Shown piece by piece: positions 1 through 19,282 of a DNA stretch of 64,000 bases. How positions within the stretch are numbered: the first letter of the stretch is position 1; each line of letters opens with the position of its first letter. Location: NCBI GenBank assembly GCA_964609835.1, contig CAZSTH010000006.1, positions 5,379 to 69,378 on the forward strand, written 5' to 3'. The DNA comes from an uncultured Thermoanaerobaculia bacterium (GTDB taxonomy: Bacteria > Acidobacteriota > Thermoanaerobaculia > Thermoanaerobaculales > Sulfomarinibacteraceae). A program made the position numbers and the translations under genes. Under the pieces are notes generated by a model. The model was not told the DNA's origin. It worked only from the letters and a program-made list of their open reading frames with translations, and did not search any database.

Positions 1-3000
1 GCCGACACGGCAGCCGCCAGCGTCACAGCGACCTGGACCACCTCGTCGTCGTATTGCAGAACGGCGGTGCTCCGACCACCCACCCCGAGGGCCGGAGCGC
101 TGGCGGTCACCGTCAGCTCACCGGCCGGCACCGCGGTGAAGACCACCGTGCCGTCGCCGCCGGTGACCGTCGGGAACCGGCCGCCGCCGGTCGATGTCAG
201 TGTGACGTTGGCCCCGGCGACCGCCTGCGCATCTGCGTCGAAGACCTGCACCGCGACCACGCCCTTCGGCCGCAGCACGACGCGATACGGATCCGCCACC
301 GAGCCCCCGCCGTCGAGCGGCACCCCGCCGTCGAAGCTCGACGCCGACACCCGTGCCTGACGCTGTTCGCCACCGAGCTCCTGGACGGTGATCGAGCCGC
401 TGCGCTCCGTCAGCACGCCGGGATAGACAAAGGCGTGGCCAGGATACGGAGGCTGCGGTGCAAGCAGCGTGAAGTCGAAAACGGGTTGCTGCTCGAGGCG
501 AACGCTCAATGGTGTCGTCGACGGGTCGACCTCGTTGAGCCCGCCCGCCAGCGACTCGAACACCCGGAACGCGACCTCTCCGGCAGGCTCGAGGACCAGG
601 TCGACCTCGGCCACCGGTGTGGTGGCGGTGAGAGCAACCTCGGCGCCTGCCCGCCGGGCCGAGCCCGGGACCGCGCCGGTGAGCTGGAAGCTGCCTTCGG
701 GGATCCCGAAGAAATCGAACCGCCCGAGGCTCTCCGGCTGGCCGGACGTGGTGTCCAGCGCTGTGATCGGACCACCCGACGTCGAGCCGCGAAGCTCGAC
801 CGTCCCCCCGGGCACGGGCGCTGTCTTGCCCGGATCGTCGTACAACGTGCCGCCGACCGCGCCGCGCTGGTCGACGTACAGCGTCCGCTCCACGAGCTGC
901 CCCGGCTGGGTCAGGGCCAGCCCATCGACACGACCACTGCGTCCGGTCGGGGCATGGAAGGCGGTCACCGAGTAGCTGCCGAGGGGCAAGGCATCGAAGA
1001 CGGCGAGCCCATCGACGTTCGCCACCGTCATCTCGTTGACTCCGCCACCGACCTTGCGGATCGTGACCTGGGTGTCGGACAGAAGGGCGCCGCTCTCAGG
1101 GTCGCGGATCGTGACCTCGATGGTGCCCACCGAAGTCGTGAGCACGATGTCCGACAGCGTCACGACCTGCCAGTCGTCGGTGATCGCGCCCTGTGCGGAC
1201 CCGCGGCGGGTCAGCTGACCGGGATCGCGGGCCACCACCCGCACACCGCCCGCGAACACGTGCCCGACCTCGTACCTCCCCTCCTCGTCCGCGCTGTACC
1301 AGCCGCTGCCAATCGGCAGCCTGCGGAAGGGATAGGCCTCCTCGCGGACGTAGTACTGGGCATGGGACAGCGGCACAAGCTCGTCGCCGATGCGTTCGAA
1401 GACCCTGCCGTTGACGGTGCCCTGGGCCTTCATTCGCACCGTCAGATCGAGGGTCTGGCCGCCGCTCCCGAAGATCGCGGAGGCCCTCCCCACACGCTCG
1501 ACGGTCCCCACGATGCCCTCAGCCCGGACCTCCAGCCGGCCCTCAGGAACCAGCTCGAACCGGAACGTCCCGGTGGCATCGGTGCGCTGGGTCTGCGGCA
1601 GGAGGTGCTCGGTGTGCAGCTCAACCTCGAAATCGGGGATCGGGGTCACACCATCGACGTTGACCAGGGTGCCGGTGACGGTGGAAGAGCCGTCGAAAAC
1701 AATGTCGACCGACCTCGACTGGCCGGCCCATTCGATCATCCCGGTCACCGTCCGCGCACCGTGGAAGGGGCTGAAGGCGGTGATTTCGTAACGGCCCACC
1801 GGCAGCTCGAGCTGCAGATTCCCGTTGGGATCCGTCACGGCCTCGATGGCGGTGCCCCGCGGGGTCACCTTTCGGGCCGTCTCGCTGTAATAGGTCGGCC
1901 GGTAGTACACCTCGGCCCACACGCTGCTGCCCTCACCGCTCGACACCTGGAGATCGACGACACCCGATCCCACCAGCTGCACCGTGGCAAAGGGACGGTG
2001 GCCGCCGAACACGATGTGGACCTCGTGTGCCTGGCCGAAATAGCCGATCCGCCCCTCGTCGAGGCCGTCCCCGGCGTGGGCGATGAGATCCCACTCGCCG
2101 AGATCGAGATCGTTGAAGGTAAAGCTCCCGTCCGCGAGCGACGTCACCTCCTGCCACGGCACCCCGTCGAGGATAGCGATGACTTCAACACCGCCGAGAG
2201 GCCTCCCGAGCGGATCGAGCACGACCCCGTCGATGCCACCCCGCATCTCGCGGAGCACGATCGGCTGCGCGTTGACCACATCAGGGGAGGTCTCGAGGAC
2301 CGCCACCTCGACGTCACCCTGCAATTGCCGTTCAGTGTCGATGGCAGATACGGTGTAGTTGGAGCCGGTGGCCGCCTGCACCGGCACACCCTCGATGCGG
2401 TAGCCACCGTCAGCGTCACTCGACGCATAGACCCCGGGGCCTGGGATGAAGACGGTCGCGCCATCCACCGGCAGCAGATCGCCGGACACCGGATCGTCGA
2501 AGTAGACAAAACCGGCGACCGACTTCGGCGGCGACACCGGCAGCACGAGCTCGACCTCAACGGTTTGGTCGGCGGCAAGGATGATGTCGGTCAGGACCGA
2601 GGTGCGGCTGATGCGCCAGTCCGCCGCCTGCACGGTGACCTGTCCTGCCGGCACCTGATCGAAGCGGAAGTGCCCGTAGGGATCGGTCTCCACCTCGCCG
2701 AGCAAGGCGCCGGCAGCCCAAACACCGACCTGTGCACCGCTGACCGGCGAAGTTTCGTCGTCCTCGAGCCGCAGGACCGTACCCACAACCACGCCCAACC
2801 CGGGCGGCTGGGTGCGGGGCAGCTCGAGCAGCACGTCCACGGTGTCCCCGGGCTGCGCGATACCAACGGTTGCGTAGACGGTACGTCCCTCGGGGTCGCG
2901 ACCGGTGAGAGTCAACGGACCCACCGGCATGGCCGGCACCGTGAAGTTGCCGCTGTCGTCGACGAACGCGGTCTCGGACTCGTTGAACAGCGTGCTTGCC

Positions 3001-6000
3001 ACCGTCACGCTGCCGTCGGAAACTGGCGCACCGCCGTCGAGATACACGAGCCTGCCGTTCACGGTGCCCCGACCCAGCAACGCGATGTTGATGCGCGTGA
3101 TCTGGTTCTGCAGGCGAATCGTCGACCTGACCTCTTCCACCGCCGCGGGCTCGGTGGCCGGATCGTCGCCTTCCGGGACGATGGCCCGCAGAATGAACTC
3201 TTCTTCGACGAAGGGATCCCAGTGCGGCGCCTCGACGAAATCGAAGTAGAACGCGCCGTCGTCGCCGGTCGACGTCTCACCGACCAGATCGAGCACCGTC
3301 TTGTAGCCGGTCACCGTGTCCTCGAGGCGCGGGCGGATCAGCTTGACCACGGCGTTAACCGCCGACTCTCCCGTGCCCCGCAGCACCTGCCCGCCCACCA
3401 GGCCGCCGTAGTGGCGGGGAGGGTGCTCGATCATGGGCGGAGGCGGGCTTTCTCCGAGCGTGTTGCCAAACTCATCCATCAGGTTCAATGGGTCGATGAG
3501 GTGCTCATGCACAACGAGCGGAGCCGAAGTGCTTCCGTCCCAGAGCGCACTGATCGGGCTCTGATAACGCACGTTGACCACGCGTGCGCTCGGCTGCAGA
3601 AACGCCTGGCGGCCGCTCTTTTCGGCGATCCACGGTTCGCCTCCATCCTCGAAGGTGGAGCGAATGCGATAGCTGTCCGCGGTCTGCCCCGACACCTCGT
3701 CGGGTGGCCGATTGAAGAGGTAGCTCACGCCCTGCCCGTAGCGGTTCTCTCCGGCGCTGATGCCGTAGTCCTGGCGCGCTCCGATGATCCGGAAGGCCGG
3801 CAAGGGCACGTCGTCGAGAAACGCCGTGGCGCCCGCCACAGGCTGGCCCGTCGAGAGATCGACGAGCTCGAACCCGCCGTCGGACGGGTCGACAACCCCG
3901 GCGCCGGCGGTCACCGCGTAGACGGTGTGGGCCGGCACCGTCACCTGGCCGAAGTCGATGCGTCGGTACCCGCCATCGACCGCGTCGCCGACAATCAGCA
4001 GCAGGCGTCCGGCCGCGGGCGAATCGCCAGAGTTCTCGATGGAGATCTCATGGAGCTCGTCGGCCTGCACCGAGCCGACCACCGCCAGTGGGATGTCACG
4101 ACCGCCCGCGGGATCCTCCGATACCGTGAAAATCTCGCCGAAGTCGAGGCTCCGCACCCGCTCTTCGAACTCGCCGGGATGGGCGAGCACAGCCCAGTCG
4201 TCCTCCGCCGCTTGCCGGATCTCGAGCGCCGGCACTTCGGCCGTGTCCCCAGGCAGCAGCATCGCCGCCAGGTAGGGATCGGCGTACGAGGTAGTGACCG
4301 CGAAATGATCGAAGAGGCCCTCTGCGTCGAGGCCGTGCGACTCCTGCTCGGCACGGAGGAGGCCGGCAAGCTCCACGCCCACCTGGCCACCCTTGTCGGT
4401 CAATCGCCTCAACCCGTCGATCTCGAGCAGCGGCGACCGATTGCCGAGCTGGTCGAGCAGCAGAACCTGCAGACTCTCAAGGAATCCATCGCCAAGGAAG
4501 ATCCGCTGGCCCGCAAAGCCGAGGTCGGCCGCCCGCTCCTCCACATCGGAGCGGATCACGCGCGGCAGCTCGGGAGGCGCCATCCCGGCCGGGGCCACCG
4601 CCAGGCTGTAAGCCAGGCCCAGAAAGTTCGTCACGGCGCTGAAGAAGCCGTCGGTCTCCGTGAACGGCGCCGACAGCCGCTCGGAAAAGCGCGGCAGCAC
4701 CAGGGTCGCCGGCGACAGCGGGATACCGAGCTCGCCGACGCCGGTGTAGAGCTGGATGGCACCGGACCCCGAGGCGGTTTCGAAGGTGCCACCGACCACC
4801 TGACCGGTCACGTCGGCGACGAGGCGGTACTCGACCGTCTCGGACTGCCCGGGTTCCAGCACCGTGATCTCGCGCAGGAAATCGTCCGCCGGATCCTGTT
4901 TGCGGGCACCGGTCATGTGCTCTTCGCGAATCTCCACCGAAACCAGGTTCTGCGTCACCCTGGAAAGATTGGTGACGGTGACGTACAGCGTGTAGGGGGT
5001 GTCCTTGCGGACCACGTCCGGATGGCTGAAGACCAGGTGGAACCGGGCGTCCACCACCTCCACCGCCGCCTGTGCGCTGGTCGCCACCGGCACCGTGGCC
5101 TTGCCCGGCCGCACCAGCTCGCCGGTCACGTCCATCTGCAGCGCGTGGGTCCCGGCTGCCAGGCCCTCGATGGTCCACGACGACGACGCCTGTCCACCTG
5201 GACCGACGACACCGCTGCCGTCGGCGCCGAGCATCGGAACCTGCTGGCCCGGGGCCACCGGCGGATCGGTCTCGGCGATCCGCAGCACGTTACCGTCGGG
5301 CAGCCGAAGCGTCGCGTGCAGGTTGTCGAGCTCGACGCCCGAACCCGCCGGCGCGCCGTTGGCGACGATCATGGTGGCGTCGAAGAACTGATTGAGGAAA
5401 GAAACGTTGCCCGGCATGACGATGGCACCGAAGACCGGGAACGTGATGGGAACGTAGACCTCCTCGTCCATCTCGAGAGGCCGGCGCTCCGGGATCTCCA
5501 GCGTGAAGGGCACGATGTGCGGCGGCTGCCAGCGCTGCACCAACTGCGCCACATCGGACGGCAGACCGTCGAGCTGGACGGTGGGCCGATCGAGGACCTC
5601 GACCTCCCCGCCGCCCTGGTACAGCACCGGGAGATTGATGATCACCAGCTCCGACTCGAACGCGAACCCGACGGCGAAGTTGTAGCCCTGAAAGTTCTCC
5701 TGGGTGATCGAAATGCCCCTGGCCTCGAGGTCTTCGAGGCTGAGGGTCGTGACGGTCGCCGAGGCGAGGACGATCTGGCGGACGTGAATCACCGCAATGG
5801 GAGGATCAGCGCTCTGGATCACCGAGTTGTCAGAGGTGTCCACGAGGCGGATGTTCTCGAGCAAGTAGTCGCCCTGCTGCTGGAATCCCGGCAGGACGAA
5901 GGTGCCACCCGGCACCGTCGTCAGTGGAATCGCCTCCGGCAACTCCGGCCCGCGCAGCTCCGCCCGCAATTGGAGACCGATCGTCCAGGGATCGCCCGAT

Positions 6001-6248
6001 GAGGCCGCCCCGCACTCTTCGTCGCCCGTGCCGTAACAGGTGCGCACCGTGGCGCGCTCGCCGATGTTGACGACCTGATCCGCATCGTTGACCTGGTCGT
6101 CCGCGTAGATCGTCACCCGCGTGCCCCGCACCTCCAACGCGCCTTCAACGATCAGCCCGTTCGCCTCGACTGTGCCGCCTGCTGCCGCACCCGCGATCGC
6201 CAGTGCGACCGCGATCCGCCCGAAGTGCGGCAGCGGACGGGGAATCAC
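1..6248 (-). CDS. Giant secreted repeat protein. More than 2,080 aa lie in the window and the C-terminus runs off the left edge. It has a signal peptide followed by about nine carboxypeptidase-regulatory-like/Ig-like beta-sandwich repeats.
   Basis: Own minus-strand translation. GTG at 6248 has GGGGAG 7 nt upstream, and an in-frame TGA at 6302..6300 closes the frame upstream. The N-terminus VIPRPLPHFGRIAVALAIAGAAAGGTVEANG looks like a signal peptide. The frame stays open to position 1. Recurrent units include GTVNGRLVYLDGGAPVSDGSVTV..DDSGNFTVPAMPVGPLTLTG and VTGTLVNVDGVTPIPDFEVELH..TDATGTFRFELVPEGRLEVRA. It is absent from the ORF track because it has no in-window stop. Confidence 0.85.
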   Translation of the reverse strand, partial: MIPRPLPHFGRIAVALAIAGAAAGGTVEANGLIVEGALEVRGTRVTIYADDQVNDADQVVNIGERATVRTCYGTGDEECGAASSGDPWTIGLQLRAELRGPELPEAIPLTTVPGGTFVLPGFQQQGDYLLENIRLVDTSDNSVIQSADPPIAVIHVRQIVLASATVTTLSLEDLEARGISITQENFQGYNFAVGFAFESELVIINLPVLYQGGGEVEVLDRPTVQLDGLPSDVAQLVQRWQPPHIVPFTLEIPERRPLEMDEEVYVPITFPVFGAIVMPGNVSFLNQFFDATMIVANGAPAGSGVELDNLHATLRLPDGNVLRIAETDPPVAPGQQVPMLGADGSGVVGPGGQASSSWTIEGLAAGTHALQMDVTGELVRPGKATVPVATSAQAAVEVVDARFHLVFSHPDVVRKDTPYTLYVTVTNLSRVTQNLVSVEIREEHMTGARKQDPADDFLREITVLEPGQSETVEYRLVADVTGQVVGGTFETASGSGAIQLYTGVGELGIPLSPATLVLPRFSERLSAPFTETDGFFSAVTNFLGLAYSLAVAPAGMAPPELPRVIRSDVEERAADLGFAGQRIFLGDGFLESLQVLLLDQLGNRSPLLEIDGLRRLTDKGGQVGVELAGLLRAEQESHGLDAEGLFDHFAVTTSYADPYLAAMLLPGDTAEVPALEIRQAAEDDWAVLAHPGEFEERVRSLDFGEIFTVSEDPAGGRDIPLAVVGSVQADELHEISIENSGDSPAAGRLLLIVGDAVDGGYRRIDFGQVTVPAHTVYAVTAGAGVVDPSDGGFELVDLSTGQPVAGATAFLDDVPLPAFRIIGARQDYGISAGENRYGQGVSYLFNRPPDEVSGQTADSYRIRSTFEDGGEPWIAEKSGRQAFLQPSARVVNVRYQSPISALWDGSTSAPLVVHEHLIDPLNLMDEFGNTLGESPPPPMIEHPPRHYGGLVGGQVLRGTGESAVNAVVKLIRPRLEDTVTGYKTVLDLVGETSTGDDGAFYFDFVEAPHWDPFVEEEFILRAIVPEGDDPATEPAAVEEVRSTIRLQNQITRINIALLGRGTVNGRLVYLDGGAPVSDGSVTVASTLFNESETAFVDDSGNFTVPAMPVGPLTLTGRDPEGRTVYATVGIAQPGDTVDVLLELPRTQPPGLGVVVGTVLRLEDDETSPVSGAQVGVWAAGALLGEVETDPYGHFRFDQVPAGQVTVQAADWRISRTSVLTDIILAADQTVEVELVLPVSPPKSVAGFVYFDDPVSGDLLPVDGATVFIPGPGVYASSDADGGYRIEGVPVQAATGSNYTVSAIDTERQLQGDVEVAVLETSPDVVNAQPIVLREMRGGIDGVVLDPLGRPLGGVEVIAILDGVPWQEVTSLADGSFTFNDLDLGEWDLIAHAGDGLDEGRIGYFGQAHEVHIVFGGHRPFATVQLVGSGVVDLQVSSGEGSSVWAEVYYRPTYYSETARKVTPRGTAIEAVTDPNGNLQLELPVGRYEITAFSPFHGARTVTGMIEWAGQSRSVDIVFDGSSTVTGTLVNVDGVTPIPDFEVELHTEHLLPQTQRTDATGTFRFELVPEGRLEVRAEGIVGTVERVGRASAIFGSGGQTLDLTVRMKAQGTVNGRVFERIGDELVPLSHAQYYVREEAYPFRRLPIGSGWYSADEEGRYEVGHVFAGGVRVVARDPGQLTRRGSAQGAITDDWQVVTLSDIVLTTSVGTIEVTIRDPESGALLSDTQVTIRKVGGGVNEMTVANVDGLAVFDALPLGSYSVTAFHAPTGRSGRVDGLALTQPGQLVERTLYVDQRGAVGGTLYDDPGKTAPVPGGTVELRGSTSGGPITALDTTSGQPESLGRFDFFGIPEGSFQLTGAVPGSARRAGAEVALTATTPVAEVDLVLEPAGEVAFRVFESLAGGLNEVDPSTTPLSVRLEQQPVFDFTLLAPQPPYPGHAFVYPGVLTERSGSITVQELGGEQRQARVSASSFDGGVPLDGGGSVADPYRVVLRPKGVVAVQVFDADAQAVAGANVTLTSTGGGRFPTVTGGDGTVVFTAVPAGELTVTASAPALGVGGRSTAVLQYDDEVVQVAVTLAAAVS

Positions 6249-6293
6249 ATCCCACTCCCCCGCTGGCTGGACCCAACGCCGAGATTCACGAAC

Positions 6294-6430
6294 CTGCCTT
6301 CATGGTGAACGGAAGGCTCCTTTCACCTGACGGAAACGCCCTCGTGTACATTAATAGGGCACCGGCGACGCGTTGGCAATCGCCCGTTTGAGTGGTTTTT
6401 CTCATCACTTTGAGTGAATTTAAGGAGAAT
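6294..6430 (-). promoter_or_regulatory. Copy 1 of a 137-bp promoter/leader element, upstream of the giant repeat protein gene.
   Basis: On the minus strand there is a 33-nt AT-rich box AAATTCACTCAAAGTGATGAGAAAAACCACTCA (6421..6389). It is followed by -35 TTGCCA (6379..6374), a 17-nt spacer and -10 TATTAA (6356..6351). The leader hairpin GGTGAAAGGAGCCTTCCGTTCACC (6327..6304) encloses AGGAG, and ATGAAGGCAG follows from 6303. The element is 117/137 identical to 10298..10434. Confidence 0.7.
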
Positions 6431-6519
6431 CCGTGCATGAAACATAGGTGCCATGGCACGTGCCATAGGTGTCGGTGTCGGCCCTGGTATCTGTGCACCT
6501 GCTCTGATTCACCTCGCCC

Positions 6520-9500
6520 TTACGACGGATCGCCAACCAGGACGAACGGCGCCCAGATCATTGCCGAGGGGTAGACGCGGCGGATTTCGCTGCGCGCCTG
6601 CCGAAGCGCCTCCGCCTTGGTTTCCCCGGCCAACCATCGAGAGTAAAAGATCTCCATGAGCTCGGCCGTGGGCTCGTCGGCCACCGACCACAGCGTGACC
6701 ACCACGCTGCGAGATCCGGCGGCCAGAAACGCGCGGCCCACCCCGAACACACCCTCTCCTTCCCGGACCTCGCCGATCCCGCTGTTGCAGGCCGAAACCA
6801 CCACCATTTCCGTGTCGACCAGCGGCATCGAGATGATCTCGTCGAGGGTCAGCAGGCCCCACTCGTCCCTTCGCCGGAAGGCTTCGTTGGCACCCGCCAA
6901 CGCCAGGCCGGCACGTGCGAGAGGGTTGTCCTCGGGGACCGCTCGCAGTCCGCTGTACTCCGACAACAGCAGGGGAGTCAGATTCGAAGGGTTCGCCGGA
7001 AGCTCACCTGGAATCGAGTACCCGTGGGTCGCGAAGTGCATCAACCACGGGGACTCGACGAAGTCCATCGCGCCCTCGTTGGCATCGAGGTCCGTGAACA
7101 CCAGAACGTCGAGCGAGGTTCGATCCTCCAGCAGGCGGACCACCGCGTCGGCTTCGCGCCGGGTGCCCGGCAGTCGACCGAGATGGACGTTCTGGAACGG
7201 TGCAATGCCCCAGGCGCGACGACGCGATCCGCGCCGCTCCACGACCCATCGGCTCTCGTCCGGCGGCTTGGGGGGCATGGTGTCGAAGTCCGGGTCGGCA
7301 ACCACGATCGCGCTTCGCTTCCGGAGCTGTGGTCCATCCCACAAAGCGAGGTCGCGGCCGTTCGAGAGGTAGCTGATGCGAAACTCCTCGTCGAGATAGG
7401 CCCCGGATCGATCGCGCATGCAACCGAAGGGCAGACGGGCGAGCGCACCGTCCGGGCTCACGAGCAGCCACTCGATGCCTGTCGTGGTAGTCGACCACGG
7501 GCCCACCAGCAGATCGAAGACCCGGCTCCCGAGGTTGCGCCCGGCGGTGGTCTGATCGAACCCCCGCGCGATCGCGGCCAGGTACTCGAACACCACGCCG
7601 TCGATCTCGGTCGCCGGGCCAAGATCGACGAGAAGGGGGCCGGCGGATCCGGCGGGCACCACGAAGACCAGATACCGGTCCTCGCCACCCACCTGGCCCG
7701 CGCGACAGAAATCGACGTAGGCCGAGCCTGGCGGCAGCCGGTCCTCGAGCTCACGGGTCGTGAAATCCACGCCGCCCGTCCAGAATCCGGATTCCGTCAG
7801 CTTTTGGTGGAGGTCCTTCTCGATCTCGGACCGCTCCTCGCGCAGCCGTTGGATCGCCTCCCGACCACGCCGGTCGCTGCGGCCCTCGAACCACAGCACT
7901 GCCAGCTCATTGTCGATCGCCCGGAGCTGCTCGGCCAGCTCTCGAGTCTCCTCAGATGGGTCGAGGGCCAGCATCTCGCTTCGTGAGCGCTGGGTTTCCA
8001 GCAACGCGCCCTTGATCCGCAACCAGCCGTCGAGCGTCCGCCGCACCTCGTGCGCGCCGGCGCCGGCGTGGCGAGCGGTGTGCAACATGACCTCTGCAGC
8101 CCTCGCACGCAGCCGCTGCAGCGCGGCCACCTGCTGTCGCTCCGAGAGAACCGAAAGCAGGCTCTGGAAGTGATCGAGATCCGCCGCCTGGGCCTGGAAG
8201 AACAGCTCCGCGCTCCGGCGGTGATTGCCCTCCCTTGCCAGCGCGTTGGCCAGCAGGTGCCGCGCCTCCGACATCAGTATGTAGTCGTCGCCGTACAGGG
8301 ACTGCCAACGTTCGAGGCAGTGCTCGAGAATGCGCGCGGCCTCCGCGTGCCGTCCCGCAGCGAGGTACACGCAGGCCAGCGCGTACTCGGTCTCGATGAC
8401 CTCCGGGGTGTCCGAACCGAAGCGCGCGATCAAGATCTCCCGCGCGCCGGCACACGCCGTGAGCGCTTCGGAGTACCGACGCGCCTGCATGAAGTAGATG
8501 CCCAGCTCCCGCAGAGCAACAGCCGTGTCCGGATGGTCGCGGCCAAGGTGTTCGACCCGCCGCGACAGTCCCTGGCGCTGCGCCGCGATCGCGGCAGACC
8601 GCTTCCCGTCGGCGCTCTCGATCTGCGCCTCGAGCCGATAGGTGTCAGCCATGTGGAGCGGGCGCCATGCGTGCATCATCAACCGGTGCAGCTCGTCGAC
8701 GATCCCACGGGCGTCGTCATACCTCCCGGAGGCGATCAGCACCTTCACGAGACCGGACTTGGCTCGAAAAAGAGCATCCCAATTCCGCCCCTGGCTGAGA
8801 TCGAACGCTTCGATCGCCGACCGGTAGAGCCTCTCTGCTTCGCCCAACCGCCCGGAACGGCGGTAGACATCCGCCACGCGCGCCACCAGCTCCGAGAACT
8901 CCCATCTCGACGAGGACATCTCCGACAACGCCGAATCGTCGAATGCCGCCAAGTGTCGGTTGGCCTCGCGGAAACGGCCGAGCTGCTGGAGGGACACCGC
9001 GAGCCGCGCGCGGATCAGCTCCTTCTCGATCATCGACTCCATTGAGCCGGAATCCGACAGCTCGAGGGCCCGCGACAGGGGAGCGACCGCCGCTTCGGGC
9101 CGGCCGAGCTCATACAGGGTGGCACCGACCCCCGCGTGCGCTTCAGCCACCAGTTCGTGCTCTCCAGGCAAAAGGCGTTCTCTCACCTCGAGCACCTCCT
9201 GCCACCGCCACAGCGCGTCGTCGAAGTTTTGTTCGCGATAGGCGAACGCCGCAGATCGCCGCTGTTCGCCGACCCGCCACAGCTCACGCCGGTCGGCGTC
9301 CGTGTCGAATGCCAGGTAGACCGACGCGATCGCCGCCACCGCGGCCCCGGTCCACGCCACTCCCAGAGGGAAACGCCTCAACACCAGCAACCAACAGACC
9401 ATTGCGAGCGCGAAGATGCCGATTCCCCGATTCACGCTCAGCACGATGCGTTCGTCGAGGGACAGCAGCCGCAGCTCGACCGCGAACCAGAGAAAGACGA

Positions 9501-10212
9501 CCGACGATGTCACGAAGAGTGCCGCGACCGCCGCCGACAGCCAGCGAGACGCGAATTGCAGCGTCGACCGAGTCTCGGCTTCGAAGAAACGCCGCGAGGC
9601 CAGAAAGCCGACCACCCCACATCCCAAGGCCGCGCACACGAACTTGAACGGCCACGACACCGGGATTGAAAGCCATCCGAGCAGAGGGCCCCCGAGGCTG
9701 ATCGTGCCGACCGTCACCACCGCGAACGTCAGGACCGCGAGCTCGACTGCGAGCACGGAAGACGCCCACCCGGGCAGACGGCCGAGCGCGGCGAGAACCG
9801 CCACCGCGATTGACACGACGCCGCAGCCCACGATGCCCAGTCGGAAGGCGGTCGCCAGATCCAACCCGAAGGCATCCCACAGATCCGCCAGCGCCAGCCA
9901 CAGCCCGCCGGCCGCGAGCCCGCCGAGCACGACGGCCGTCAGTATGCGCAGGAGCCTGTCCTGCCACGCCACATCGACGATCGCGGTCGCAGCCCTCGAG
10001 GCGACGAAAAGTACCGGCAGCAGGACGACGCAGAGCGTGAGCCAGCCCGGCCACAACCCAGCGGACCTCAGGAAACCACGAGCCACCAGCGCGCTGGGAC
10101 CGAAGAGCAGCAGCGTCATTGCCAGCGCTACGGCCACGCGGACTGCACCAGCCGATGGCGGCGGCTCGTTCGTACGGGCGGACGACGGTGTGCGTGCCGA
10201 GGAGACTGTCAT
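6520..10212 (-). CDS. Polytopic-membrane TPR-CHAT protein (caspase-like protease domain), 1,230 aa.
   Basis: The first ~300 aa are a run of hydrophobic helices. The middle has TPR-like repeats (e.g. AEAHAGVGATLYELGRPEAAVAPLSRALEL) and a coiled-coil stretch. The C-terminal CHAT signature includes HFATHGYS (His), VVVSACNSG (Cys) and GVGRAFLAAGSRSVVVTLWSVADEPTAELM. GAGG lies 7 nt upstream of the ATG. Confidence 0.85.
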   Translation of the reverse strand: MTVSSARTPSSARTNEPPPSAGAVRVAVALAMTLLLFGPSALVARGFLRSAGLWPGWLTLCVVLLPVLFVASRAATAIVDVAWQDRLLRILTAVVLGGLAAGGLWLALADLWDAFGLDLATAFRLGIVGCGVVSIAVAVLAALGRLPGWASSVLAVELAVLTFAVVTVGTISLGGPLLGWLSIPVSWPFKFVCAALGCGVVGFLASRRFFEAETRSTLQFASRWLSAAVAALFVTSSVVFLWFAVELRLLSLDERIVLSVNRGIGIFALAMVCWLLVLRRFPLGVAWTGAAVAAIASVYLAFDTDADRRELWRVGEQRRSAAFAYREQNFDDALWRWQEVLEVRERLLPGEHELVAEAHAGVGATLYELGRPEAAVAPLSRALELSDSGSMESMIEKELIRARLAVSLQQLGRFREANRHLAAFDDSALSEMSSSRWEFSELVARVADVYRRSGRLGEAERLYRSAIEAFDLSQGRNWDALFRAKSGLVKVLIASGRYDDARGIVDELHRLMMHAWRPLHMADTYRLEAQIESADGKRSAAIAAQRQGLSRRVEHLGRDHPDTAVALRELGIYFMQARRYSEALTACAGAREILIARFGSDTPEVIETEYALACVYLAAGRHAEAARILEHCLERWQSLYGDDYILMSEARHLLANALAREGNHRRSAELFFQAQAADLDHFQSLLSVLSERQQVAALQRLRARAAEVMLHTARHAGAGAHEVRRTLDGWLRIKGALLETQRSRSEMLALDPSEETRELAEQLRAIDNELAVLWFEGRSDRRGREAIQRLREERSEIEKDLHQKLTESGFWTGGVDFTTRELEDRLPPGSAYVDFCRAGQVGGEDRYLVFVVPAGSAGPLLVDLGPATEIDGVVFEYLAAIARGFDQTTAGRNLGSRVFDLLVGPWSTTTTGIEWLLVSPDGALARLPFGCMRDRSGAYLDEEFRISYLSNGRDLALWDGPQLRKRSAIVVADPDFDTMPPKPPDESRWVVERRGSRRRAWGIAPFQNVHLGRLPGTRREADAVVRLLEDRTSLDVLVFTDLDANEGAMDFVESPWLMHFATHGYSIPGELPANPSNLTPLLLSEYSGLRAVPEDNPLARAGLALAGANEAFRRRDEWGLLTLDEIISMPLVDTEMVVVSACNSGIGEVREGEGVFGVGRAFLAAGSRSVVVTLWSVADEPTAELMEIFYSRWLAGETKAEALRQARSEIRRVYPSAMIWAPFVLVGDPS

Positions 10213-10297
10213 GCGAGACCTCGGATCAGTTTCTCGTGGTCAAATACGCGGCACAACCGACCGTCCGACGGCTGGCGACGGGTTGGCCCAATCGAAG

Positions 10298-10434
10298 CTG
10301 CCTTCATGGTGAACGGAAGGCTCCTTTCACCTGACGAAAACGCCCACGTGTACAACAATAGGGCGCGCGGCCGTCGGCAGCAATCGCCAGAATGAGTGGT
10401 TTTTCTCATCACTTTGAGTGAATTTGGGGAGAAT
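10298..10434 (-). promoter_or_regulatory. Copy 2 of the 137-bp promoter/leader element, upstream of the CHAT gene.
   Basis: It has the same 33-nt box (10425..10393). The -35 TTGCTG (10383..10378), 17-nt spacer and -10 TATTGT (10360..10355) follow, with an identical hairpin and ATGAAGGCAG. The ATG at 10307 opens a 32-codon uORF whose TGA overlaps the CHAT ATG (ATGA at 10212..10209). Confidence 0.7.
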
Positions 10435-10477: not shown

Positions 10478-11161
10478 TCAGCCGATGTGCTCGGCGAGCA
10501 CCCGCAGACGGTCGGGACGGTGCACCACGACCTGTTTCGGCTCGGCCGTGAGGAGGCCGTCCTCCTCGAGCTTCTTGAAGGTGCGCGACAGGACCTCGGG
10601 CGCGGTGCCGCACTGGGCGGCGATCAGGTTGCGGGGCTCGGCCAGCGGGATGGCGTCCCCCGGTACGAGGTCACGCGCACCAGCGCGGCCCAGGAGGTAG
10701 ATGGCCAGCCGCTCCTCCACCCGCCGCTGGGTCAGCAGCTCGAGCTTGGCCGCCAGCTTGCGGGTCCACGTCGAGACCGAGCCGAGCATGGCCAGCCCCA
10801 GCTCCGGCGAGGAGGCGAGCAGCTCCAGCAGCGCCGCGCGCGGCAGGCCCCACACGACACTTGCCGCCACGGCCTCGGCGGTGGCGGGATAGGTACCCTC
10901 GGCGAAGACCGCGGCCTCGGCGAAGCTCTGGCCCGGCTGGACCAGGTGCAGCAGCAGCTCGCGTCCCTGCGGCGAGTAGCGCACCAGCTTGAGGCTGCCG
11001 CTGACAACGGCGAACAGCGCCTCCGCCTCCTCGCCCTCGTGGAACAGGATCTCGCCGCGGTCCAGCCGGCGCTCGTGGCCGGCGGAGATCACCCGCCGTC
11101 GCTGGTCGTTGCTCAGCTGTTCGAGCAACGGCACCTCTTCCAGGGGCGAACGGTGGGACAT
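10478..11161 (-). CDS. Crp/Fnr-family transcriptional regulator (cNMP-binding domain plus C-terminal HTH).
   Basis: The cNMP-like region is RLDRGEILFHEGEEAEALFAVVSGSLKLVRYSPQGRELLLHLVQPGQSFAEAA. The HTH is RNLIAAQCGTAPEVLSRTFKKLEEDGLL, with an E-x-x-S-R recognition helix. There is no N-terminal Cys cluster. Confidence 0.85.
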   Translation of the reverse strand: MSHRSPLEEVPLLEQLSNDQRRRVISAGHERRLDRGEILFHEGEEAEALFAVVSGSLKLVRYSPQGRELLLHLVQPGQSFAEAAVFAEGTYPATAEAVAASVVWGLPRAALLELLASSPELGLAMLGSVSTWTRKLAAKLELLTQRRVEERLAIYLLGRAGARDLVPGDAIPLAEPRNLIAAQCGTAPEVLSRTFKKLEEDGLLTAEPKQVVVHRPDRLRVLAEHIG

Positions 11162-13842: not shown

Positions 13843-14991
13843 CTATCGCGCATCGAGATCGATACTCCGCGCGGGGGTCTCGCCGATGGCCTCGAGGATC
13901 TCGTCCGCGGCGCGCGCTCCACTGGCCTCCACGTCGACCACCGTGGCATCGGTGGCACCGAGGGCGGCGAGCAGCGACGGCACCAGCGCCCGCCGCACCA
14001 CCACCACGAAGGCCCGCGGCCGCGCCCTCCGCAGCGCGCCGCGCACCGCCGGCAGGTGGCCGCCGCCGCGCAGCTCCACCGGGCCGAGCTCGTCGACGAT
14101 CAGCACGCTCGCGTCGTCCGCCCGCTCGAGAGCCTGCCGAGCGAGATCGAATCCCTGCCGCTCGAAGACGAATTGAGTGCCGTGCTCGCCTTGACCGTGC
14201 TCCACCCGGGTCGCGATCCGGGCGGACGCTCCGGAGGCGAGATCCGCCACATCGAAGCCCACCTTGCGCCCTTCCTTCCGCACCGCGGTCTGCACGAAGC
14301 CCGCCACCGGCCGGCCCGCTGCCTGCAGGCCCCGCACCAACTCGCCGACGGCGGTAGTCTTGCCGCCGTCGGTGGGTCCCGTGACCACGATCGTCCGAAC
14401 CGGGGTGTCGAGGCCGGTGCGCGGTGCCGTGAGCGCGCGGTGGCCGCGGAGCGCCGCCGCCGCGGCGGCCTCGTCGGCCACCCGCGCGGTGTGGGCCAGC
14501 AGCACCTCGCCGAGCGCCGGCAACCGGCGTACGAGGTCGAGGCGGCCGGTCCTTCGCATGGCGGCCGCGGTCCACACCTCCGACGCGGTGTCGGCGATTC
14601 GCGGCAGGCTGTTGAGCGCCAGGCCGAGCACCAGGCCGAGCCGCTCCAGACCGAGCGCGCTCGTCGATTCCAGAATGCGGTCGGCGTCAATCCGTCGCGA
14701 GGCCACCGCGGCGGCCGTCGCCAGCACCAGCAGCCGCAGCAACACCAGCGCTCCGCTGACCAGTCCTCGCTCGGGACCCTGCGCCCACGCCACCACCGCG
14801 AAAGTCACGGCCGCGGCGAAAACCAGCGCCAGTGTGAACCCTGCCCGCAGCAGCGAGGCGACGGCGCGGCGGTCGAGCAGCGCGGCCGCTGCCAGCGCGA
14901 CGGCCGCCACCAATGCCGCCGGGACCGGATCGCGCACCATTACCACTGCGACCACCGCCAGCAGCAGCACGATACCCGCGGCGCGAGTCAC
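13843..14991 (-). CDS. Fusion of an EcfT/CbiQ-like transmembrane component with a C-terminal THEP1/DUF2478-like P-loop NTPase.
   Basis: The N-terminal half is hydrophobic and carries the paired coupling motifs AAMRRTG and AAALRGH. The C-terminal half has IVVTGPTDGGKTT (Walker A) and VLIVDELGPVEL (Walker B). The GTG start at 14991 overlaps the upstream stop (GTGA). The track's longer ORF from 15555 overlaps the neighbouring gene. Confidence 0.7.
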   Translation of the reverse strand: MTRAAGIVLLLAVVAVVMVRDPVPAALVAAVALAAAALLDRRAVASLLRAGFTLALVFAAAVTFAVVAWAQGPERGLVSGALVLLRLLVLATAAAVASRRIDADRILESTSALGLERLGLVLGLALNSLPRIADTASEVWTAAAMRRTGRLDLVRRLPALGEVLLAHTARVADEAAAAAALRGHRALTAPRTGLDTPVRTIVVTGPTDGGKTTAVGELVRGLQAAGRPVAGFVQTAVRKEGRKVGFDVADLASGASARIATRVEHGQGEHGTQFVFERQGFDLARQALERADDASVLIVDELGPVELRGGGHLPAVRGALRRARPRAFVVVVRRALVPSLLAALGATDATVVDVEASGARAADEILEAIGETPARSIDLDAR

Positions 14992-15572
14992 CTTTGGCCC
15001 CCGACCCGCTGTGCGACCCTCCCCGCCACCCACCACGACCACAGCCCTCCGACCGCCCCCACCAGTCCGCTGACCGCCACCAGCCCCGCGAGCACGAGCT
15101 CCGGACGCAGCCCGTTCAAACCGAGACCCGCGGCCGTCGCCTGCATCAGCTCGAGCGCGGCGCCGGCCGCCTCGGGACCCGCGACCACCCACACCGAGAC
15201 CAGGCTCTGGATGGGGTTGGTGGCGAGGGTCAGGAAGCCGCCGACCGCGGCCCCCGCCGCGCGCCCGCCGGTGCCGGTCATGGCCGCCTCCACCGCGATG
15301 GCCTGGACGGCAATGCCGATGATGGGACCAGGGGAAAGGCCGCCGATGGTGAAGATCTTGAGGAACACCGCCACCGCTCCCGCCAACAGGCAGACGCCGG
15401 GCCGAGGCTGCAGCCGCCGCAGGCAGATCAGGCACAACAGCCCGGCGAGACCGATCAGGCTGCCTCGGAACGGCACCCGTCCGAGGTGCAGCGCGGCACC
15501 CGCGGTCGCCTCGAGGGCGCCCCACAACGCTCCGAACAGGGCGGCGTAGGTCCACGCCCGGACGTCGGTCAC
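14988..15572 (-). CDS. Polytopic membrane protein, possibly the substrate-capture (S) component of the ECF-type transporter.
   Basis: The 194-aa product is almost entirely hydrophobic (MTDVRAWTYAALFGALWGALEATAG..). It overlaps both neighbours by 4 nt (GTGA) and has high GC3. Confidence 0.6.
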   Translation of the reverse strand: MTDVRAWTYAALFGALWGALEATAGAALHLGRVPFRGSLIGLAGLLCLICLRRLQPRPGVCLLAGAVAVFLKIFTIGGLSPGPIIGIAVQAIAVEAAMTGTGGRAAGAAVGGFLTLATNPIQSLVSVWVVAGPEAAGAALELMQATAAGLGLNGLRPELVLAGLVAVSGLVGAVGGLWSWWVAGRVAQRVGGQR

Positions 15573-16900
15573 GCCGACACCTCCTCGAGGGCGCGATCGG
15601 CGATCCTCATGTGGCGGTGGACCGCCGATAGGATTTCGAGCCGGTGCGAGATCAGGAGGTAGGCCCTCCCCTTCTCGGCCCGCCTGTGAATCAGGTGGAT
15701 GAGCGCCGCCAGGTCAACGGGGTCGAGCCCCTGCCCGGGCTCGTCGATGATCATCAGCCGCGGCCGGCGGAGGTCGAGCGCCGCGTGCACCAGGCGCTGG
15801 CGCTCGCCCCGCGACAGGGTCCACGGCGCGCGCGCCGCCAGGTGCTCGAGGCGATGCCGGCTCAGGACCTTGGCTGCCTCCGCCGCCGACACACCGCCCG
15901 TCGTGACCTCCCCGAGGACCGTGCGTGCGAAGAGCTGCAGCTCGGCCGACGGCAGCATCAGGGCCGTCGGCTCCGGCCTCCGCACGCGACCCGCCGCGCC
16001 TCCGCGCACACCTGCGAGCACCCGTCCCAGGGTCGACTTCCCGACGCCGTTTGCGCCGCTCAGCAGCAGCACCTCGCCGGCCCTCAGCTCGAGAGCCGCG
16101 TCCTGCACGAGGACCTGCCCGCCTCTGCGGATCACGAGGTCCGTCGCCGAGAGCACGATCTCGTCGCCGGGCGGCGCGGGACGACCGAAGGCCGGCGGCT
16201 CCGTTGGTTGGCAGCCCATCAGCGTGCCGCGGTCCAGGCGAAGCCAATCGTTCACCACCTCCCCCACCCGCCACCCGGCCTGTTCCGCCAGCACGACGCT
16301 GCCGCCTGCGGAGGCGTGCTCGGCCAGGAGGCGTCCGAGGGCGGCCGCTCCATCGCCATCGAGATGGGCCGTGGGCTCGTCGAGCAGAACCGGACGGCGG
16401 CCCGCCGCCAGCGCTGCCGCCAGCGCCACCCGCTGCCGCTGGCCCGACGAGAGCTCGGAGATCCGCCGTCCGCGCAGCCCGTCGATCGCCAGCGCCGCCG
16501 CGGCGCTGTCCGCCGCGGCATCGGATCCATACAGACGCCTGGCCGCCGCCAGTTCGTGCCCGACGGTCGCCAGGAACAGCTGTGCCTCCGGACGGTCGAG
16601 GCAGGTCCCGAGCAGGTGGGCGCGCTGCCCGGGATCGAGCTCGCCGAGGGCCTCGCCGCCGAGCTCCAGACGGCCGTTCACCTCGCCGCCGTGGTGCCAC
16701 GGCACCAGCCCCGACAGCGCGTGCAGCAGGGACGTCTTGCCCGTACCGGAGCGGCCGCAGACCGCGACGACCCGACCCGGCCCGACATCCAGCTCCAGTC
16801 CGCGGAGCGCAGGCCTGGTCATGCCCGGCCTGCGCACCGTCAGATCGCGGGCGGTCAGCAGCGCCCGCCCGCCGGTCGCACCCGATGTCGCAGCGCCCAT
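15569..16900 (-). CDS. Duplicated ABC ATPase (EcfA-EcfA'-like fusion).
   Basis: It has two Walker A motifs (GRSGTGKTS, GANGVGKST). It also has two signature/Walker B pairs (LSSGQRQRVALAAALAAGRRPVLLDEP and LSRGERQRLVHAALDLRRPRLMIIDEP). Confidence 0.85.
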   Translation of the reverse strand: MGAATSGATGGRALLTARDLTVRRPGMTRPALRGLELDVGPGRVVAVCGRSGTGKTSLLHALSGLVPWHHGGEVNGRLELGGEALGELDPGQRAHLLGTCLDRPEAQLFLATVGHELAAARRLYGSDAAADSAAAALAIDGLRGRRISELSSGQRQRVALAAALAAGRRPVLLDEPTAHLDGDGAAALGRLLAEHASAGGSVVLAEQAGWRVGEVVNDWLRLDRGTLMGCQPTEPPAFGRPAPPGDEIVLSATDLVIRRGGQVLVQDAALELRAGEVLLLSGANGVGKSTLGRVLAGVRGGAAGRVRRPEPTALMLPSAELQLFARTVLGEVTTGGVSAAEAAKVLSRHRLEHLAARAPWTLSRGERQRLVHAALDLRRPRLMIIDEPGQGLDPVDLAALIHLIHRRAEKGRAYLLISHRLEILSAVHRHMRIADRALEEVSA

Positions 16901-17857: not shown

Positions 17858-19282
17858 ATGCATTTCACAGTCACCGCCCATGCCGCCGCCTGGACCGTGG
17901 CCGCCGCCCTGGTCCTCGGCTCCGCGAGTGCTTCCTCCTCGGACACGTTGGTCCGGGGAACCGCCACCTACCGTGAGCGCATCGCGATGCCGCCCGGTGC
18001 GGTCCTCGAGGTCACCCTCGAGGATGTCTCGCTGGCGGATGCCCCCGCAGGCGTCATCGCAAAGGTGCGGTTGGAGAACATCGGCAACCCGCCCTACGAG
18101 TTCGAGGTCCCCTACGACCCTGCGCAGATCGACGACCGGCAGACCTACGCCGTGCGGGCGCGGCTGCTGTTCGACGGGCAGCTGATGTTCACCTCGGACA
18201 CGCACCACCCGGTGCTGACACGCGGTGCGGGAGACGAGGTCGCGATGGTGCTGGTTCGAGCGGGTCTCTCCCATGGTGCCGACGCCGCCGACCGGGGTGT
18301 GGACACGGCCGGCCTGCACGACCTGCCGGCGACCTTCGAGGGCGTGCTGCCGTGCGCCGACTGCGAGGGCATCCGCTATCACCTCGATCTTTTCGAGGAC
18401 GAGGCCTTCTTCCTGCGCACGGCCTACCTCGGGCGCGGTGATGATGCGGTGTTCGACGACATCGGCTCGTGGGCCGTCTCCAGCGACGGCAGCCGGCTCG
18501 CCCTGTTCGGCGGCCGCGAAGCGCCGCTGTTGTTCCGCATCGTCGAACCGAACACCCTGCGCACGCTCGACATCGAGGGGCGCGAGATCGACTCCGATCT
18601 GAACGACGACCTCGAGCGCGCCTCGGAGTTCACCCCCATCGAGCCGCGCCTGGCGATGCGCGGCATGTACCGTTACATGGCCGACGCCGCTCTCTTCGAG
18701 GAGTGTCTGACCGGCAAGAGCCTGCCGGTGGCGATGGAGGCCGACAACATCGCCCTCGAGCGGGGCTACCGTGAGTCGGGGGTCGAGCCGGGCCAGCCGG
18801 TCCTGGTCATCCTCGAGGGTCGGCTCGCCCGACGGCCGGCGATGGAGAGCGAGGGCACCGTGCTGAGTTTGGTGCCCGAACGCTTCATCGGCGTCTGGCC
18901 CGGCGAAACCTGCGGGCCGCGAATGGCCAATGCCGAGCTGCTGAACACCTACTGGAAGCTGACCCGGGTCGGCGACGGGCCGGTGATTTTCGGCAGGCAA
19001 CAGCGCGAGCCGCACATGGTCCTGCATGCGCAGGAGAATCGTCTCAGCGGTTCCGGCGGCTGCAACCGGTTGGTGGGCGGCTTCGAGATCGACGGGCGCG
19101 AGATCGCCTTCGCCCAGATGGCGAGCACCATGATGGCGTGTCCGGAGGAGATGAACACCGAGCAGGCCTTCTCAGACGCGCTGTCCAGGGCCCGCACCTG
19201 GCGGGTGATCGGCTCGCATCTCGAGCTGTACGACGAACAGGGACAGATGGTGGCAAGGTTCGAGGCCCGGCACATGGACTGA
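17858..19282 (+). CDS. Secreted three-domain fusion: YbaY-like, NlpE N-terminal-like and META/HslJ-like domains.
   Basis: AAGGAGG lies upstream and a signal peptide is present. YRERIAMPPGAVLEVTLEDVSLADAPAGVIA is YbaY-like. FEGVLPCADCEGIRYHLDLFEDEAF is the NlpE motif. LLNTYWKLTRVG..LSGSGGCNRLVGGFEIDG..MASTMMACPEE is META-like. Confidence 0.8.
   Translation: MHFTVTAHAAAWTVAAALVLGSASASSSDTLVRGTATYRERIAMPPGAVLEVTLEDVSLADAPAGVIAKVRLENIGNPPYEFEVPYDPAQIDDRQTYAVRARLLFDGQLMFTSDTHHPVLTRGAGDEVAMVLVRAGLSHGADAADRGVDTAGLHDLPATFEGVLPCADCEGIRYHLDLFEDEAFFLRTAYLGRGDDAVFDDIGSWAVSSDGSRLALFGGREAPLLFRIVEPNTLRTLDIEGREIDSDLNDDLERASEFTPIEPRLAMRGMYRYMADAALFEECLTGKSLPVAMEADNIALERGYRESGVEPGQPVLVILEGRLARRPAMESEGTVLSLVPERFIGVWPGETCGPRMANAELLNTYWKLTRVGDGPVIFGRQQREPHMVLHAQENRLSGSGGCNRLVGGFEIDGREIAFAQMASTMMACPEEMNTEQAFSDALSRARTWRVIGSHLELYDEQGQMVARFEARHMD

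Follow-up and report, generated by a model that had tools for sequence, protein, structure and literature searches.

On which side of the membrane does a caspase-like protease operate when it is joined, through tetratricopeptide repeats (TPRs), to a polytopic membrane domain, and which proteins might it cut there? This question is raised by a gene on the minus strand of the 64,000-nucleotide (nt) stretch from an uncultured Thermoanaerobaculia bacterium, a sediment acidobacterium, that was analysed here as a whole (the window). The gene encodes a protein of 1230 amino acids (aa) with nine predicted transmembrane (TM) helices, a TPR array and a C-terminal CHAT domain. TPR-CHAT proteins are best known as cytoplasmic switches, namely separase, which acts in chromosome segregation, and the craspase of CRISPR immunity; to our knowledge, the Myxococcus xanthus anti-sigma factor DdvA is the only periplasmic one characterised so far. 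The window protein is a membrane-tethered TPR-CHAT protease of very rare domain architecture, new in its arrangement and known in its protease type, and this architecture and the family membership can be assigned with high confidence. On balance, we favour the view that it is an inner-membrane-anchored, outward-facing cysteine protease of the separase/craspase/DdvA type with a target in the cell envelope.

Domain architecture and catalytic dyad

The gene consists of a single 1230-codon open reading frame (ORF) with an ATG start codon, a GC content at third codon positions of 0.82 and a coding-type codon bias; an identical protein (P0001) is contained in NCBI-derived data on a 77.6-kb contig, and an identical locus (L084) occurs in the sample SRR7048218. 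Its components, with the evidence for each in brackets, are:

6520..10212 (-), whole gene of the TM(9)-TPR-CHAT protein, 1230 aa (ORF list, translation, five collinear orthologues)
10144-10212 (-), basic N-terminal tail of ~23 aa, aa 1-23 (precedes the membrane domain)
9307..10143 (-), orphan polytopic membrane domain of nine helices, aa ~24-302 (hydropathy, AlphaFold2 helices)
8173..9243 (-), TPR superhelix, aa ~324-680 (Pfam TPR models, PDB sequence matches, confident AlphaFold2 model)
7789..8142 (-), long-helix linker/scaffold joining TPR and CHAT, aa ~691-808 (AlphaFold2 helices, model positions H391-508)
6529..7533 (-), CHAT caspase-like protease domain, aa 894-1228 (Pfam PF12770, fold matches)

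The CHAT domain is matched by PF12770 almost over the entire profile (positions 3-289 of 289) with E=2.1e-59 and 201.8 bits vs a cutoff of 24. It contains the motifs LMHFATHGYSIP with the catalytic His1063 (codon 7024-7026) and VVVSACNSGIGE with the catalytic Cys1142 (codon 6787-6789). Both residues are invariant in a full-length alignment of five family sequences (four distinct orthologues), and the dyad columns are at least 90% conserved among 48 TPR-CHAT relatives. Protease activity is assumed on the basis of this conservation. N-terminal to the CHAT domain, on the same polypeptide, Pfam identified TPR_12 in five stretches (E=3e-31) as well as TPR_10 and further TPR models over aa ~324-680, and structural alignments (see below) span both parts, as expected for a TPR-CHAT protein. 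Sequence searches against the PDB with the whole protein returned TPR proteins only, including the kinesin light-chain TPR, and the CHAT half gave no detectable phmmer match to any solved CHAT domain. NCBIfam contributed one TPR match to the whole protein, below threshold.

A preliminary description of this locus, made from the sequence, had proposed a TM-TPR-CHAT layout with an intact His/Cys dyad and had named profile searches for PF12770 and TPRs as a check; both profiles match, the layout of CHAT, TPR and nine hydrophobic segments agrees with the proposal, and the dyad is conserved in the aligned orthologues. The segment regarded there as a coiled coil corresponds to the long helices of aa ~691-808 in the confident AlphaFold2 model.

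The N-terminal third proved to be membrane-spanning, as had been suggested, on the evidence of hydropathy, orthologue alignment and modelled helices. Kyte-Doolittle analysis indicated nine hydrophobic segments within aa 24-302 and none over threshold in the other ~900 residues; all nine are retained across the alignment of the six family members, and the low-confidence AlphaFold2 model of the domain comprises nine helices (H21-50 to H283-301) followed by a soluble helix. No Pfam family matches aa 1-330, and a fold search of the PDB with the membrane-domain model yielded noise only (GPCR-like helical bundles at E>0.5). When the first 320 aa were used as query in an exhaustive phmmer search of 1.84 billion representative proteins, three matches were found, all from the own family: a fragment of 104 aa and two proteins, 1232 and 1181 aa in length. 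The domain is the least conserved region of the protein, with 35-40% identity among orthologues vs 48% overall. None of the Cys, His, Asp or Glu residues within its helices is invariant; most of the residues that do not vary are Trp, Gly or Arg located where helices end. An exosortase-like function, which would imply a polytopic Cys/His/Arg transpeptidase, was rejected because intrahelical Cys, His, Asp and Glu are never invariant. Since no Pfam, NCBIfam or PADLOC family spans the membrane domain or the whole protein, the architecture is rare and, as had been judged earlier, cannot be placed in any described system.

Orthologues and distant relatives

The family comprises six sequences, namely the window protein, P0100, P0103, P0104, L002:980-4666 and L083:9983-13672. 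The five orthologues are collinear with the window protein over the full length at 44-49% identity, and all are metagenomic. P0100, P0103 and P0104 share 93% identity among themselves and derive from the loci L001 and L003 and the partial locus L004. L083:9983-13672 belongs to a metagenome-assembled genome of 'Candidatus Sulfomarinibacteraceae' and is the sole orthologue with a taxon label; it was found by scanning genome contigs with the family alignment after a single-protein query had found none. L002:980-4666 corresponds to P0101 with a corrected start at GTG 980, which is backed by the fragment P0102, the start given in the database being too short. A mis-joined gene pair can be excluded because the ORF is continuous in every orthologue. 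In L002, the GTG 980 overlaps the stop codon (GTGA) of an upstream 199-aa ORF (384-983) without Pfam match; this suggests that the two form an operon, an arrangement confined to that genome.

Otherwise, full-length searches recovered only TPR-CHAT proteins of ~30% identity, aligned to the soluble 70-80% of the query, and none of those inspected possesses a polytopic N-terminus. The best relatives of the soluble part (P0005, P0006, P0009 and P0012-P0031) are uncharacterised proteins of soil and sediment bacteria. A signal-peptide-like N-terminus is present in 25 of the 32 best TPR-CHAT relatives; among these, P0009 carries a lipobox and P0006 a C-terminal tail resembling a sorting signal. With the window protein these relatives share 24-30% identity over 45-80% of the query, the TPR-linker-CHAT layout and a similar length, but they exhibit a cleavable-looking signal peptide or a lipobox where the window protein has its nine-helix domain.

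We also inspected 70 CHAT ORFs from 78 more distant metagenome loci, most of the complete ones having one N-terminal hydrophobic stretch. L009 alone has three or more N-terminal hydrophobic segments, in a membrane region unrelated to that of the window protein; its ORF (1160-4585) codes for a distant TPR-CHAT protein of an AT-rich organism with its own N-terminal region of ~3-4 hydrophobic segments. TPR-CHAT modules have thus acquired polytopic anchors on more than one occasion.

Membrane topology

Lysine and arginine residues were counted by hand in the loops between the nine hydrophobic cores of the six-sequence alignment. In all six proteins, the N-terminal tail plus loops 2, 4, 6 and 8 carry 12-16 of these residues, compared with 3-6 in loops 1, 3, 5 and 7, whose net charge is acidic. 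The flank following TM9 is acidic as well, and since the first TPR helix begins within ~3 residues of TM9, there is essentially no linker. The positive-inside charge bias therefore places the N-terminus inside, and nine helices in turn place the C-terminus outside. Based on this bias and on the signal peptides of the relatives, the TPR-CHAT part is rather probably oriented towards the periplasm (N-in/C-out). A solved precedent for such an arrangement is provided by DdvA, whose TPR-CHAT part is located in the periplasm behind a TM helix (PMC11506125). The preliminary description had implied a cytoplasm-facing protease behind a membrane sensor; both the charge tally and the signal peptides of the relatives point outward, so that the implied orientation is probably inverted.

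Fold of the soluble part and comparison with known CHAT proteins

The AlphaFold2 model of aa 301-1230, calculated from a 48-sequence alignment, reached a predicted local distance difference test score (pLDDT) of 87.9 and a predicted template modelling score of 0.88 and shows a TPR superhelix, long helices and an α/β CHAT domain. Foldseek searches against the PDB with this model identified Csx29 (8eey_B; E=1.5e-14, template modelling score of 0.58 on the target) as best match, followed by human separase (7nj1_A; E=1.3e-13) and DdvA (8rot_A; E=4.5e-12). DdvA shows the highest identity (16%) among the CHAT-containing fold matches, some TPR-only matches being higher. As modelled, the soluble part is a canonical TPR-CHAT module of the separase/craspase/DdvA type.

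The window protein resembles DdvA in its tethering to the membrane, in the position of TPR-CHAT C-terminal to the membrane segment, in the periplasmic location (here probable) and in the His/Cys dyad. In contrast, DdvA combines a single TM helix with a cytoplasmic zinc-binding anti-sigma domain, a flexible linker of ~50 aa and a partner extracytoplasmic function (ECF) sigma factor, whereas the window protein contains nine TM helices and a 23-aa tail devoid of Cys and His, lacks the linker and is encoded beside no sigma factor gene. No anti-sigma Pfam family matches the window protein, a CHCC zinc-binding domain is absent, and an ECF sigma gene is neither adjacent in the window nor found in the orthologous loci. 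These features bear on the idea that the outward TPR-CHAT part might sense a signal, cleave itself, thereby free or destabilise the membrane part and transmit the signal inward without cutting other proteins. DdvA, the closest CHAT fold relative by identity, is proposed to act in this manner (PMC11506125). However, a zinc-binding anti-sigma domain is impossible in the short N-terminal tail, the upstream gene encodes a Crp/Fnr regulator and not an ECF sigma factor, nine TM helices are present instead of one, and a flexible linker between TM9 and the TPRs that could serve as cleavage target is missing. We regard such a transducer as very improbable.

Csx29 (PDB 8EEY, 8D9F, 7Y83) shares with the window protein the order of TPRs and CHAT and the identical dyad, but it is soluble and cytoplasmic, lacks the membrane domain and acts bound to Cas7-11/gRAMP. 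No association of the window protein with Cas7-11/gRAMP or Csx30/31 is indicated, as no cas domains were detected in the flanking genes or the orthologous loci. Separase (PDB 7NJ1, 5U1T) likewise displays a helical-repeat array followed by a caspase-like domain; it differs in being eukaryotic, soluble, regulated by securin and Cdk, and devoid of a membrane domain. According to two reports (PMC8406250, PMC9457339), HetF from Anabaena PCC 7120 is a membrane-attached CHAT protease of demonstrated activity, but its CHAT domain is N-terminal (aa 1-555), one TM segment is predicted and the TPRs lie elsewhere. As membrane-tethered CHAT proteases are already known from DdvA and HetF, the window protein is a variant and not categorically new.

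In a different explanation, a cytoplasm-facing TPR-CHAT part coupled to a membrane sensor would serve as a conflict or abortive-infection effector that kills or arrests the cell upon envelope perturbation. Cytoplasmic TPR-CHAT proteins are indeed known from type III-E CRISPR and other conflict systems (PMC10028731, PMC10907252). The gene resembles accessory DNA, its neighbours differing between close strains and the L083 copy being flanked by IS200-like Y1 transposase genes, and the membrane domain evolves faster than the rest of the protein. Against such an effector stand the charge tally, which predicts an outside C-terminus in all six proteins, and the signal peptides of most nearest relatives. 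Moreover, the gene lacks a conserved neighbour that could serve as NTPase, cas or effector partner, and PADLOC-DB v2 gave zero families both for the CHAT protein and for the giant protein encoded next to it. Cas genes were found neither among the scanned neighbouring genes (a few window ORFs lay outside the scan) nor in the orthologous loci, and no STAND domain exceeded the Pfam threshold among the scanned neighbours; the nSTAND1 match of a duplicated ABC ATPase at 15569-16900 remained sub-threshold (26.7 bits vs a cutoff of 27.1). The association with conflict, cell-death and CRISPR systems drawn in the preliminary description thus found no counterpart in these searches, and we consider a conflict effector unlikely.

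The giant neighbour

A candidate target is encoded directly downstream:

3..6248 (-), giant secreted protein, partial, >2082 aa (translation, Pfam)

Its gene starts with GTG at 6248 behind a GGAG Shine-Dalgarno sequence, codes for a signal-peptide-like N-terminus and continues past the window start. Pfam detected CarboxypepD_reg in at least seven stretches, SdrD_B and SpaA. The preliminary description had linked the CHAT protease functionally to this protein, and the most direct form of this idea is a two-gene module in which the protease would be dedicated to maturation or shedding of the giant protein. Both genes lie on the same strand, separated by a gap of 271 nt in which no terminator-like site was found; the same 144-nt element stands in front of each (see below), and both products are predicted to be extracytoplasmic and could therefore meet.

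The pairing is, however, conserved from neither side. A giant repeat-protein gene is found beside the CHAT orthologue in none of the five loci, one of which (L003) offers almost no downstream sequence (~360 nt). In three of the four loci with downstream sequence, a convergent gene follows, namely an aldo/keto-reductase gene in L001, an ORF in L002 and a 664-aa ORF in L004. In the fourth, L083, the CHAT orthologue is located between IS200-like Y1 transposase genes, the downstream one on the same strand, with glycosyltransferase genes beyond. An all-vs-all blastp comparison of the window ORFs with the five orthologous loci detected only the CHAT gene and its out-of-frame shadows. Viewed from the other side, the giant family is far wider: the N-terminal 700 aa have 31 homologues, most of them 43-72% identical, and most of the taxon-labelled ones originate from Thermoanaerobaculia or Acidobacteriota, a distribution that also indicates where the window organism belongs. 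A CHAT gene is absent upstream of the giant-gene orthologues in L085, L087 and L088, where Mem_trans, small unknown ORFs and a pantothenate kinase are encoded; L086 comprises only 452 nt upstream and is uninformative. The 144-nt element is also missing from all giant-gene orthologue loci (L085-L088) and, more generally, from related genomes. The preliminary description had named lack of conservation of the gene pair as a refuting outcome, and on this measure a conserved functional pair is refuted; a dedicated two-gene module is improbable, and equally little speaks for the giant protein as the substrate. The giant protein is not a conserved partner; it is probably a co-regulated neighbour in the window genome only.

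As a separate observation, the giant-protein orthologues in L085-L088 are split into consecutive same-strand ORFs (e.g. 1124 + 945 + 372 aa in L085), reflecting either multi-gene arrays or frameshift errors of long-read sequencing.

A duplicated element upstream of both genes

The basis for co-regulation is a pair of elements, detected by alignment and blastn, together with a regulator gene:

10289..10434 (-), element copy 1, upstream of the CHAT gene
6289..6430 (-), element copy 2, upstream of the giant gene
10478..11161 (-), Crp/Fnr-family regulator, directly upstream of the CHAT gene (Pfam cNMP_binding, HTH_Crp_2)

The two copies, the only ones in the window, are 87.5% identical across 144 nt. 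An upstream 33-nt block, AAATTCACTCAAAGTGATGAGAAAAACCACTCA, is identical in both and contains the perfect palindrome TCACT-N3-AGTGA; a downstream 39-nt block (the leader) is likewise identical and folds into a hairpin that buries AGGAG and AUG. The differences cluster in a 17-nt stretch that separates TTGC from TATTGT/TATTAA, the putative -35/-10 spacer. From this conservation pattern, we interpret the element as a putative promoter with a conserved operator and a 5' leader. In related genomes, clear TTGACA-N17-TAnnnT promoters lie at comparable positions upstream of the homologous genes. The preliminary description had assigned one promoter/leader to both genes; the same element indeed precedes both, but each gene has a separate copy, and the duplication suggests local co-regulation rather than a shared transcript leader. 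The Crp/Fnr-family protein, for which NCBIfam lists FtrB, FixK and Fnr-like matches, all below cutoff, is a candidate binder of the palindrome. A riboswitch or other structured-RNA leader was rejected, as the element matched no Rfam family, neither at the gathering threshold nor at E<=1, and the fold-energy z-scores of the leader (-0.1 to -1.3) are not unusual.

Several smaller features were noted in these upstream regions. The element holds a direct repeat of CACTCA, 22 nt apart. The window leader shares with L001 and L003 the 10-mer TCACCATGAA and a short upstream ORF (uORF) ending on the main start codon; blastn was negative, and the likeness is possibly due to chance. The uORFs start at a common TCACC-ATG-AA and are located at 10210-10307 (-) and 6312-6329 (-) in the window, at 127-150 in L001 and at 1462-1485 in L003. 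In the CHAT leader of the window the uORF has 32 codons and terminates with ATGA at the CHAT start codon; the uORFs of L001 and L003, seven codons long (MNSRGSW/R), likewise stop on the main start codon, and that of the giant-gene leader comprises five codons. These uORFs may reflect translational coupling or chance. Furthermore, GGTGCCA(T)/ATGGCAC motifs cluster upstream of the promoter regions at 1250-1350 in L003, with five ATGGGTGCCA-like copies, and at ~6440-6480 in the window, where TAGGTGCCATGGCACGTGCCATAGGTG precedes the element of the giant gene. The clusters could be binding sites of a regulator.

A proposed mode of action

For the favoured outward-facing envelope protease, we propose the following first scenario. 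The lineage-specific nine-helix domain would take the place of the Sec signal peptide carried by most of the closest relatives and would present the TPR superhelix and the CHAT domain on the periplasmic face, with the TPR base held directly on the membrane domain. In analogy to solved TPR-CHAT enzymes, the TPR array might bind a protein ligand or the substrate. The His1063/Cys1142 dyad would remain inactive until it is brought into alignment, either by the bound ligand or through a change in the membrane domain; such a conditional activation is deduced by analogy with separase, craspase and the proposed DdvA model. The activated enzyme would then cleave an exported or envelope protein. Transcription would start from the promoter/operator module duplicated before the giant gene, so that co-expression of both genes is probable, possibly under the control of the Crp/Fnr regulator.

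Several points weigh against this scenario. The topology is deduced from the hand-made positive-inside count and from a total of nine helices. Hydrophobicity is weak in the sixth segment (mean Kyte-Doolittle value 1.47), and an even helix number would place the TPR-CHAT part in the cytoplasm. The AlphaFold2 model of the membrane domain was built from four input sequences and is of low confidence (pLDDT 56.5). In DdvA, the complete dyad resides in an otherwise incomplete active site (PMC11506125). Scanning for promoters with the E. coli consensus gave no match, and the gene neighbourhood differs even between strains whose proteins are 93-99% identical.

A more specific version of the outward-facing protease can be envisaged, in which the nine-helix domain acts not as a passive anchor but as a novel type of membrane sensor or gate that allosterically controls the enzyme, and the enzyme processes the co-regulated giant protein or S-layer/SLH-anchored envelope proteins. 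We consider this combination improbable.

Genomic surroundings

The genes further upstream of the CHAT gene look unrelated and encode a radical SAM/SPASM maturase-like protein, a NapH-like ferredoxin, an NTPase and the duplicated ABC ATPase mentioned above. The remainder of the window is rich in envelope functions, with SLH proteins, an S8-SLH subtilase, a pyruvyl-transferase/glycosyltransferase family 2 (GT2) fusion, glycosyltransferases and a sulfatase, which is compatible with an envelope role of the protease and no proof of it. The distinct features are:

17858-19282 (+), unusual lipoprotein-like fusion of YscW, NlpE N-terminal, NlpE C-terminal OB and META domains, 474 aa
31142-36034 (+), second very large protein, 1630 aa, with CarboxypepD_reg and DUF4394, followed by a 611-aa ORF without Pfam match
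38247-42020 (+), polysaccharide pyruvyl transferase (CsaB-like) with two GT2 domains, 1257 aa
52069-52932, 53027-55486 (S8 subtilase with SLH) and 55575-56777, SLH-domain proteins

The pyruvyl transferase/GT2 fusion and the SLH proteins look like a machinery for anchoring SLH domains to pyruvylated glycans.

In L083, four genes for ~320-aa IS200-like Y1 transposases are distributed over 20 kb (2238-3209, 4365-5345, 7292-8263 and 13859-14821), one of which shows a weak sub-threshold match to the DnaA_C helix-turn-helix. Two of them flank the CHAT orthologue together with its upstream 419-aa gene of no assigned function, which suggests that this region is mobile or rearranging.

Implications

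The practical value of the finding is limited by the small family of about six sequences, all from uncultured organisms, and by the fact that no specific substrate is indicated. If the nine-helix domain did function as a sensor or gate in the sense outlined above, the protein would be an Acidobacteriota protease for envelope remodelling or signalling of a kind not described before. The nine-helix family and the uncharacterised relatives with signal peptides together suggest that soil and sediment bacteria commonly possess caspase-like proteases that are exported or face outward. A TPR-CHAT protein with a polytopic anchor would offer a tractable entry point into how such enzymes may be gated by the membrane and what they may cleave in the envelope.

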